The notes: generated by a model not told the origin, from the letters alone. 64,000 bases of DNA from an uncultured Bacilli bacterium (GCA_944350315.1 CALVON010000001.1:10033-74032); one strand, 5' to 3'; counted from the stretch's first letter, positions 6,985 to 7,233 are shown. Program-made: numbers and translations.

Positions 6985-7233
6985 TTAATAAGTTACTAAT
7001 GGATTAAAGAATAATAATAAGAAACAAAATGCAAATAAGAATAATAAAAATACTGCGGCAATAATTAAAATAGTCATTACTGCATGAACTACATCATTTT
7101 TAGTTTCTGGATTTCTTCCAATAGCCTCTGCCACTCTTCCTCCTAATATTCCAACACCAATTCCTATGCCTAAAAAGCATAGACCAATCATTATTCCAAT
7201 TGCTAAAGCGGTATTTGATAAAATAACTTCCAT
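6985..7233 (-). CDS. F-type c-subunit-like hairpin protein lacking the helix-2 carboxylate
   Basis: 82 aa. It has a GxGxGxG helix 1 ([11 protein letters not shown]) and an AEAIGRNPE loop (compare AEGIARQPE). Helix 2 ([29 protein letters not shown]) contains no Asp or Glu. Confidence 0.65.

Follow-up and report, generated by a model that had tools for sequence, protein, structure and literature searches.

Gene cluster and c-subunit homolog

The window, by which we mean the whole 64,000-nucleotide stretch of DNA analyzed here, comes from an uncultured Bacilli bacterium, has a G+C content of 26% and contains a conserved cluster of ~ 10 genes. All of them, together with the other cluster features described below, lie on the (−) strand. 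One gene, at 6985..7233, encodes an 82-aa c-subunit homolog, recognized by a Pfam ATP-synt_C match, by alignments and by the selection acting on it. Its ORF begins with ATG and has an AGGAG Shine-Dalgarno sequence 8 nt upstream. The gene is preceded by a sigma70-like promoter with an extended −10 element (TTGACA-18-TATAAT with TG; 7272..7301), and a second such promoter (TTGACA-17-TATAAT with TG; 15250..15278) stands before the gene of a giant surface protein. Both putative promoters are called by consensus match only, each at 12 of 12 positions, and they are the sole 12/12 matches in 16.6 kb, one in each intergenic gap ahead of a sub-operon.

The first-pass annotation had described the product as a c-like hairpin with a glycine-rich helix 1 and an RNPE loop, and this description holds up well. 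The protein passes the Pfam ATP-synt_C threshold (PF00137; 33.9 bits with a cutoff of 24), and the match covers the whole profile (positions 1-60 of 60). Its best matches in the PDB are all c subunits, headed by Acetobacterium woodii c1 (59.5 bits). It scores below the cutoffs of the NCBIfam AtpE equivalogs, of which PRK06876.1 comes closest (42.3 vs. 71; TIGR01260, 18.8 vs. 43.95). Judging from these profiles and alignments, we are dealing with a genuine homolog of subunit c.

Scanning one genome per species yielded 80 loci, all coding for the same form of the protein, in which the ion-binding carboxylate is missing. These loci supply 71 distinct c-like sequences, on which the position counts given below are based. 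Three elements show no variation throughout this set, namely the glycine zipper of helix 1 (G22, G24, G26 and G28), the loop G39-R40-N41-P42-E43-x-K45 and the C-terminal N77-P78, and the protein ranks among the best conserved of the cluster. Its sequence thus appears to keep the features for ring building and central-stalk docking, namely a Gly-zipper helix 1, the RNPE loop and a hydrophobic helix 2.

Loss of the ion-binding carboxylate

H+/Na+ translocation cannot proceed without Asp 61 of the E. coli c subunit or its equivalents. To our knowledge, every ion-translocating ring of the F-, V-, A- or N-type requires this helix-2 carboxylate as well as a subunit a with its Arg, and we know of no ion-translocating c ring that lacks the carboxylate. 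In all five phmmer alignments with c subunits of known structure, namely c1 and c2 of A. woodii and the c subunits of pea chloroplasts, spinach chloroplasts and Ilyobacter tartaricus, the ion-binding Glu is matched by Ala60 of the c-like protein. This Ala lies 17 residues past the Glu of RNPE, in agreement with the first-pass annotation, which had arrived at the same residue by counting from the loop. At the position of the Na+-ligand Gln in helix 1, the protein has Val27 and, as had also been noted, its helix 2 (residues 48-82) contains neither Asp nor Glu.

The same holds for orthologs in related genomes. Among the 71 distinct sequences from the 80 species genomes, position 60 is occupied by Thr (25), Ala (23), Ser (21) or Val (2) and never by an acidic residue. 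The 120 homologs listed, which are 71-95% identical to the query, all carry Thr, Ala, Ser or Val and no acidic residue at this position; one singleton (P0118) carries a Glu at position 59. A profile search of 1.84 billion representatives delineated a ‘GRNPETK’ group of ~ 45 clusters at 50% identity (E<1e-10), in which position 60 is Thr, Ala, Ser or Val, and beyond this group the profile meets c subunits of the canonical, Glu-bearing kind and multi-hairpin forms with Glu/Gln patterns. From the alignments, then, the c-like family has lost the mid-membrane carboxylate, and this loss is fixed.

Other residues were considered as ion sites and rejected. Asp47 of the TKND motif, a candidate for a site shifted into the membrane, aligns with the usual loop-proximal Asp or Ser-Asp of canonical c subunits and is an ordinary loop-proximal acidic residue, so the objection that the first-pass annotation had foreseen does not arise. 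A second candidate is the set of His50, Ser51 and Thr54. If one of these residues bound an ion with the help of backbone carbonyls, and if the stator were a 179-aa membrane protein of the cluster or were encoded elsewhere, the complex could be an unconventional ion pump. His50 and Ser51 are indeed common in the family, but many orthologs have residues that are not equivalent: of the 71, 11 have Gln, Arg, Ser or Asn in place of His50 and 18 have Ile, Val, Phe or Met in place of Thr54, and neither residue is conserved in the Lachnospiraceae orthologs. Among the polar residues of the helix-2 core, not one is invariant in the 71 distinct sequences, which argues against a substitute site.

Family breadth, selection and hosts

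A homology search with the c-like protein returned 1,002 matches at E≤0.001. In comparisons with 12 relatives, the dN/dS of the c-like gene is 0.02-0.07, with dS of 0.6-2.2. The gene is thus under purifying selection and belongs to a conserved family, not to one in decay. The idea that it is a decaying remnant or a mis-called ORF could draw on the missing Glu and on nothing else. It is opposed by the low dN/dS, by the number of matches, by the same class of substitution at 80 species loci, by the perfect promoter match and Shine-Dalgarno sequence ahead of the gene, and by neighbors that are intact in all lineages; it has next to no chance of being right.

The family was found in uncultured gut ‘Bacilli/Mollicutes/Tenericutes’ MAGs, in Clostridium sp. 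CAG:914 and in Lachnospiraceae, the last including MAGs of Roseburia and Butyrivibrio as well as Kineothrix alysoides KNHs209, which is in culture. The window also codes for a muramoyl-alanine amidase and for two membrane proteins of the Sulfatase family (PF00884) that could be LTA-synthase-like. With the amidase and these possible LTA-synthase-like proteins, the host organism is probably walled.

F1 subunits

The alpha subunit (447 aa; 4892..6235) matches Pfam ATP-synt_ab with 240 bits, and the beta subunit (449 aa; 3525..4874) has its catalytic motifs intact. When aligned to solved F1 structures, alpha retains GDKKTGKT and SVSRLGG, the latter with the Arg finger, and beta has both [29 protein letters not shown] and EELSEED. 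The Walker A and B motifs, the catalytic Glu, the Arg finger and the DELSEED element are all found in the two subunits, from which alpha3beta3 is predicted to be catalytically competent. The C-terminus of alpha is ~ 55 residues shorter than in bacterial alpha subunits. Alpha scores under every NCBIfam cutoff (atpA, 379 vs. 484), and beta is likewise below that of atpD (453.2; cutoff 462.85). Beta matches the Bacillus TA2.A1 beta subunit with 380 bits and the G1-ATPase beta subunit with 296, and both alpha and beta are nearer to Bacillus F1 than to the mycoplasma G1-ATPase.

The gamma subunit (254 aa; 1957..2721) is recognized by Pfam ATP-synt at 91 bits, against a cutoff of 39.9. In most other lineages its gene sits between those of alpha and beta. 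An epsilon-sized protein of 85 aa without C-terminal helices (3275..3532) was picked out by position and size, its gene always coming after beta. It has no match among Pfam, NCBIfam or PDB profiles. In hhalign comparisons, its family aligned with the N-domain of Bacillus PS3 epsilon in the expected register, albeit weakly (E 0.01, probability 4%), and gave nothing with E. coli epsilon. We tentatively assign the 85-aa protein as epsilon.

Membrane sector

Between the c and alpha genes, at the place of atpF/atpH, lies the gene of a peripheral-stalk candidate (254 aa; 6219..6983), proposed from this position and from an AlphaFold2 model with a mean pLDDT of 78.7. In the model, residues 2-73 make up a transmembrane (TM) segment and long helix, from which a disordered linker leads to a bundle of helices with a small sheet. 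At the sequence level, the protein has no match in Pfam, NCBIfam or the PDB. In a Foldseek search of the PDB, the top ~ 30 matches to the model are nearly all delta/OSCP chains, including the mycobacterial b-delta fusion, with weak scores throughout (E 0.02-0.9, TM-score 0.2-0.36, none at E≤0.001). The model suggests, with moderate confidence, that the 254-aa protein is a stalk resembling a b-delta fusion.

The sole polytopic membrane protein of the cluster has five helices (179 aa; 2734..3273) in its AlphaFold2 model (pLDDT 75.6). The two AlphaFold2 models, here and for the stalk candidate, were built on alignments, one of 37 and one of 45 sequences, whose members are fairly similar. The protein matches no Pfam, NCBIfam or PDB profile, and Foldseek found nothing at E<1 for its model. 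An alignment of 23 diverse orthologs lacks invariant columns, and within the membrane neither Arg nor any other charged residue is conserved; the near-invariant residues are G47, F49, Y128, F148 and Y152. A few very weak Foldseek matches to a Chloroflexus subunit a might be taken as a sign of the stator that an ion pump would need, but at E about 5 they rank below cytochrome oxidase subunit III and are indistinguishable from noise. By its sequence, the 179-aa protein does not look like subunit a. Nor is ATP-synt_A, the subunit a family, present among the cluster ORFs and the polytopic ORFs of the 64-kb window, and subunit a is likewise absent from the orthologous cluster of Kineothrix alysoides.

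An unconventional ion pump could also appeal to a database label, as one public source calls a member of the family ‘F-type H+-transporting ATPase subunit c’. As a functional statement the label is probably wrong, and with the His50 and Thr54 replacements and a 179-aa protein that has no conserved charge, we regard an ion pump of this kind as very improbable. A complex that lacks subunit a would therefore have no ion path and presumably does not transport ions. As it could not be driven by an ion gradient, it would have to run in the direction of hydrolysis. The first-pass proposal that the complex consumes ATP and is not an ATP synthase is thereby supported at the level of sequence, namely by the missing subunit a, the intact catalytic motifs and the family-wide loss of the carboxylate.

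Surface proteins

Three genes of the cluster encode single-pass surface proteins. The largest product, a giant of 1,912 aa (9480..15218), was identified as an ORF with a single N-terminal TM segment. This TM helix is followed by a conserved membrane-proximal module and then by a long extracellular part that is acidic and beta-rich, about 1,650 extracellular residues lying beyond the TM helix and module. The second protein, g479 (479 aa; 8032..9471), has a module paralogous to the N-terminus of the giant, followed by a linker rich in Gly, Ser, Asn and Asp and then a C-terminal domain; in hhalign, its first 230 aa match the giant N-terminus with a probability of 96% (E 1.5e-9, 223 columns). The third (243 aa; 7298..8029) consists of the TM helix and membrane-proximal module only and was related to the giant N-terminus in the same way (probability 92%, E 6.7e-7, 213 columns). 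The shared module thus comprises one N-terminal TM helix and about 200 residues. None of the three proteins has a match in Pfam, NCBIfam, the PDB or PADLOC. A defense system was considered and rejected, the PADLOC scan of the cluster having given just a generic P-loop match.

The export ATPase FliI and its partner FliJ are homologous to F1 alpha/beta and gamma, respectively. By analogy, the complex might be an assembly or export motor that acts transiently in the export, insertion, folding or extension of the giant protein and its paralogs. This would account for the tight linkage of the ATPase genes to three proteins with a common N-terminal module, and alpha and beta do give scores with FliI/SctN models, a trait common to all F1 subunits. 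However, their similarity to F1 far exceeds that to FliI (about 450 vs. 220 bits), the Pfam and NCBIfam searches found no export-gate homologs in the cluster, and the N-terminal TM helices of the surface proteins resemble ordinary Sec signal anchors. We consider such a motor decidedly unlikely.

Organization of the cluster

The association of these genes extends well beyond the window. Genes for alpha, beta, gamma and the epsilon-like protein lie downstream of c in 64 of the 65 loci with enough downstream flank, and homologs of the giant and g479 are found immediately upstream of c in 46 of the 50 with enough upstream flank. At three loci (L028, L030 and L048) the surface-protein trio is missing within 10 kb upstream, and at L056 the c gene stands directly ahead of the giant gene. 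The linkage of the surface proteins to c is strong, then, but not absolute.

In many Bacilli MAGs and at all Lachnospiraceae loci, the order is c, b-delta, alpha, gamma, beta, epsilon-like, 5-helix and 243-aa. This c-first arrangement corresponds to the canonical atpE-F(H)-A-G-D-C minus atpB, and because the gene order is that of a canonical atp operon, the cluster must have descended from a full F1Fo operon. The 243-aa gene is located 5′ of c in the window lineage, whereas other lineages have it at the 3′ end of the cluster. In the window lineage the gamma and 243-aa genes have moved and a 589-aa gene has been gained. The latter encodes cc589 (172..1941), an acidic, coiled-coil-like cytoplasmic protein without a Pfam or NCBIfam match. 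Its homologs occur in 22 loci only, each with a window-like gene order; cc589 is a lineage-specific addition to the cluster.

The c ring could be a static anchor that does not rotate and tethers an F1-like ATPase, whose rotary catalysis would then act on partners in the cytoplasm or membrane by conformational change, with the coiled-coil cc589 as a possible internal partner. The complex has no a-type stator partner, and the mycoplasma G1-ATPase, which is proposed to act in this manner, works without any c ring (PMC11864180). On the other hand, a putative membrane-anchored, b-delta-like stalk has been kept, which makes sense mainly for holding a rotor against a stator. The c loop that contacts gamma and epsilon is invariant, and the c protein is among the best conserved of the cluster. 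Weighing these points, we think a static anchor unlikely.

Comparison with known systems

The cluster resembles canonical F1Fo in several respects. The c hairpin shares the Gly zipper of helix 1, the R-x-P-E loop and the NP at the C-terminus; alpha, beta and gamma can be recognized; many lineages share the order c-b-alpha-gamma-beta-epsilon; and the modeled stalk looks delta-like. It differs in that it lacks both the ion-binding Glu/Asp and subunit a, b and delta are apparently fused, the epsilon-like protein has no C-terminal helices and alpha is truncated at its C-terminus. In addition, it includes a 5-helix membrane protein and three surface-protein genes. Every subunit of the cluster scores under the NCBIfam equivalog cutoffs.

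A Gln or another residue at the position of the Glu is also seen in the second hairpin of A. woodii c1 and in V-type proteolipids, which still take their place in a rotor ring. In those rings, however, other hairpins keep the Glu, whereas here the sole c gene of the cluster is without it. N-type ATPases (atpDCQRBEFAG) are likewise second, divergent F-type operons with extra small membrane proteins after epsilon, but they keep subunit a and a complete ion site in c. The cluster falls far below the alt_F1F0 models of NCBIfam (alpha, 349 vs. 750; beta, 419 vs. 752; c, 15.5 vs. 130.85), and these cutoffs together with its composition rule out membership among the N-ATPases.

The mycoplasma F1-like X0 ATPases provide a precedent for F1 modules that act with surface proteins (PMC3369863, PMC12994834, PMC11864180). 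The Type 3 system (MSC_0618-0624 / MMCAP2_0575-0581) is required for antibody cleavage by MIB-MIP (PMC3369863, PMC12994834, PMC11864180). It has seven genes, including those for a 12-TM protein and a small cytosolic protein, and none for a homolog of c or b; its large protein has a signal peptide together with a pair of C-terminal TM helices (PMC3369863, PMC12994834). Type 3 was reported to have no equivalent outside mycoplasmas (PMC3369863), and Types 2 and 3 are both stated to lack one (PMC3369863, PMC12994834, PMC11864180). Like Type 3, the cluster described here combines an F1-derived module with an odd membrane sector beside surface proteins, and the Type 3 module too is believed to hydrolyze ATP for mechanical work across the membrane; the two also belong to low-GC Firmicutes relatives. 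Unlike Type 3, it has a c homolog, a b-delta-like protein, a 5-helix protein, three single-TM proteins and another gene order. Pfam and NCBIfam searches of the three surface proteins revealed no MIB or MIP in the cluster.

The Type 2 or G1 gliding motor of Mycoplasma mobile is an F1-like force generator linked to very large surface proteins, in which the complex would resemble it. The G1 beta subunit, though, has an N-terminal extension of ~ 30 kDa, the G1 units form dimeric chains and there is no c ring, whereas beta in the window is unextended. Both mycoplasma types are ruled out by cluster composition and by the model cutoffs, of which alpha and beta fall short for Type 3 (MSC_0619, 314.1 vs. 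520; MSC_0618, 397.2 vs. 570) as well as for Type 2 (MMOB1660, 378.4 vs. 600; MMOB1670, 350.3 vs. 850). As far as these sequence models can tell, the cluster is a parallel to the mycoplasma F1-like X0 ATPases but not a member of either type. A full-text literature search, whose coverage left out most subscription journals, found no description of the cluster.

Proposed mechanism

We consider it rather probable, given the sequence evidence, that the cluster encodes an F-type-derived ATPase, coupled to the surface proteins, which burns ATP but does not move ions. The c-like protein would form a ring and rotate. ATP hydrolysis would turn, or exert torque on, a rotor of gamma, the epsilon-like protein and the c ring against an alpha3beta3 held by the stalk, and the energy output would be mechanical and not osmotic. 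The likely recipients of this work would be the three co-encoded single-pass surface proteins, because they are tightly linked to the ATPase genes. We infer that the complex is physically coupled to them, although gene adjacency is no proof of such coupling.

If this is correct, the complex would be the first of the F-type with a c ring and a peripheral stalk but with its ion path dismantled. It would then constitute a natural experiment in which the mechanics of the rotor are separated from ion coupling. F1-derived ‘mechanical’ ATPases would extend from mycoplasmas to abundant walled gut Firmicutes, and in evolution the cluster could stand as an intermediate between F1Fo and the Type 2/3 machines of mycoplasmas.

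The nature of the coupling can be taken a step further by analogy. The proteins Ac45, PRR and Voa1 sit in or on V-ATPase rings. In a similar manner, the TM helices of the surface proteins might sit in or on the c ring, which would then serve as a transmembrane drive shaft that passes ATP-driven rotation to an extracellular protein of 1,900 residues in a walled Gram-positive cell. The complex would in addition represent the free-living-Firmicute ancestor or sister of the F1-like machines that mycoplasmas use for gliding and antibody cleavage. Taken jointly, these propositions make for a speculative and unlikely reading; were it true, the complex would represent a surface motor of a kind not known before.

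Kineothrix alysoides KNHs209 is in culture, so both biochemistry and cryo-EM of the complex are feasible. Meanwhile, since the genes of the cluster are automatically annotated as an H+-ATP synthase, metabolic reconstructions from gut MAGs may credit the host organisms with a chemiosmotic ATP synthesis of which the complex would not be capable.

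Organization of the surface-protein trio

The three single-pass surface proteins encoded upstream of the c-like gene are built on a common module, consisting of one transmembrane helix and ~200 residues. This module makes up the 243-aa protein (7298-8029) and recurs as the N-terminal part of the 479-aa protein (at 8782-9471) and of the giant 1,912-aa protein (at 14439-15218), all on the minus strand. Alignment with hhalign against the N terminus of the giant protein gave a probability of 92% for the 243-aa protein and of 96% for the N terminus of the 479-aa protein. The paralogy of these modules suggests that the three proteins form a hetero-oligomeric, membrane-proximal base.

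In one Firmicutes MAG (L056:10001-17215), the c-like gene lies directly 5' of the genes for the giant and 479-aa proteins, on a contig that yielded neither an alpha nor a beta gene. Three other loci (L028, L030 and L048) have the ATPase genes, but the trio is absent from the 10 kb that precede the c gene; this interval instead contains unrelated housekeeping genes, or genes for other proteins with an N-terminal anchor. In the window, a rhomboid protease gene (15307-16452, minus strand) directly precedes that of the giant protein, an adjacency retained only in close relatives (~10 loci, 63-80% identity).

Putative stalk and c-like subunits

The stalk gene (6219-6983, minus strand; counterpart L001:10305-11015) is read here as encoding 254 residues, whereas public gene calls start it at Met 19, giving 236. 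The shorter version removes most of the N-terminal transmembrane helix. Since each of the 28 orthologs aligned keeps this helix, the 254-residue version is to be preferred.

Among homologs of the c-like protein, a lone metagenomic variant (P0118), seen on one contig only, has a glutamate at position 59, one residue ahead of the canonical site. The representative library also contains fused c-subunit proteins of three to eight hairpins (P0390, P0395, P0396, P0406 and P0468), which are unrelated to the c-like family of the window. In this group the ion site is Glu in some hairpins and Gln in others; P0406 has Glu in all five.

Genes flanking the cluster and elsewhere in the window

The operon ends with a gene for a very acidic, coiled-coil-like protein of 589 residues (172-1941, minus strand), 142 of which are Asp or Glu. 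It matched no family among the Pfam and NCBIfam profiles, and its homologs are confined to 22 loci, each of which shows window-like gene order.

Directly downstream of the ATPase cluster, a gene for a ~222-aa protein (1-85, minus strand) runs past the window edge; a full-length copy is present at L004:9029-9697. Its N terminus, GIFYGVIGVATLVVAIIGATFAFFAA, resembles SipW/TasA/camelysin-type signal peptides, and the homolog in locus L027 scores 18.9 bits against TIGR04088 (cutoff 19). One to four genes of this type flank the cluster in 16 of the 80 loci, all from the lineage with window-like gene order.

Elsewhere, a 187-aa ORF (17845-18408) whose N terminus has a methylation motif like that of type IV pilins overlaps the 5' end of the gene for signal peptidase II (17405-17857), both on the minus strand. 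A phage-type integrase gene (34798-35766, minus strand) adjoins that of an amidase containing bacterial Ig-like domains (33078-34733), and this may be where a prophage or island begins or ends.
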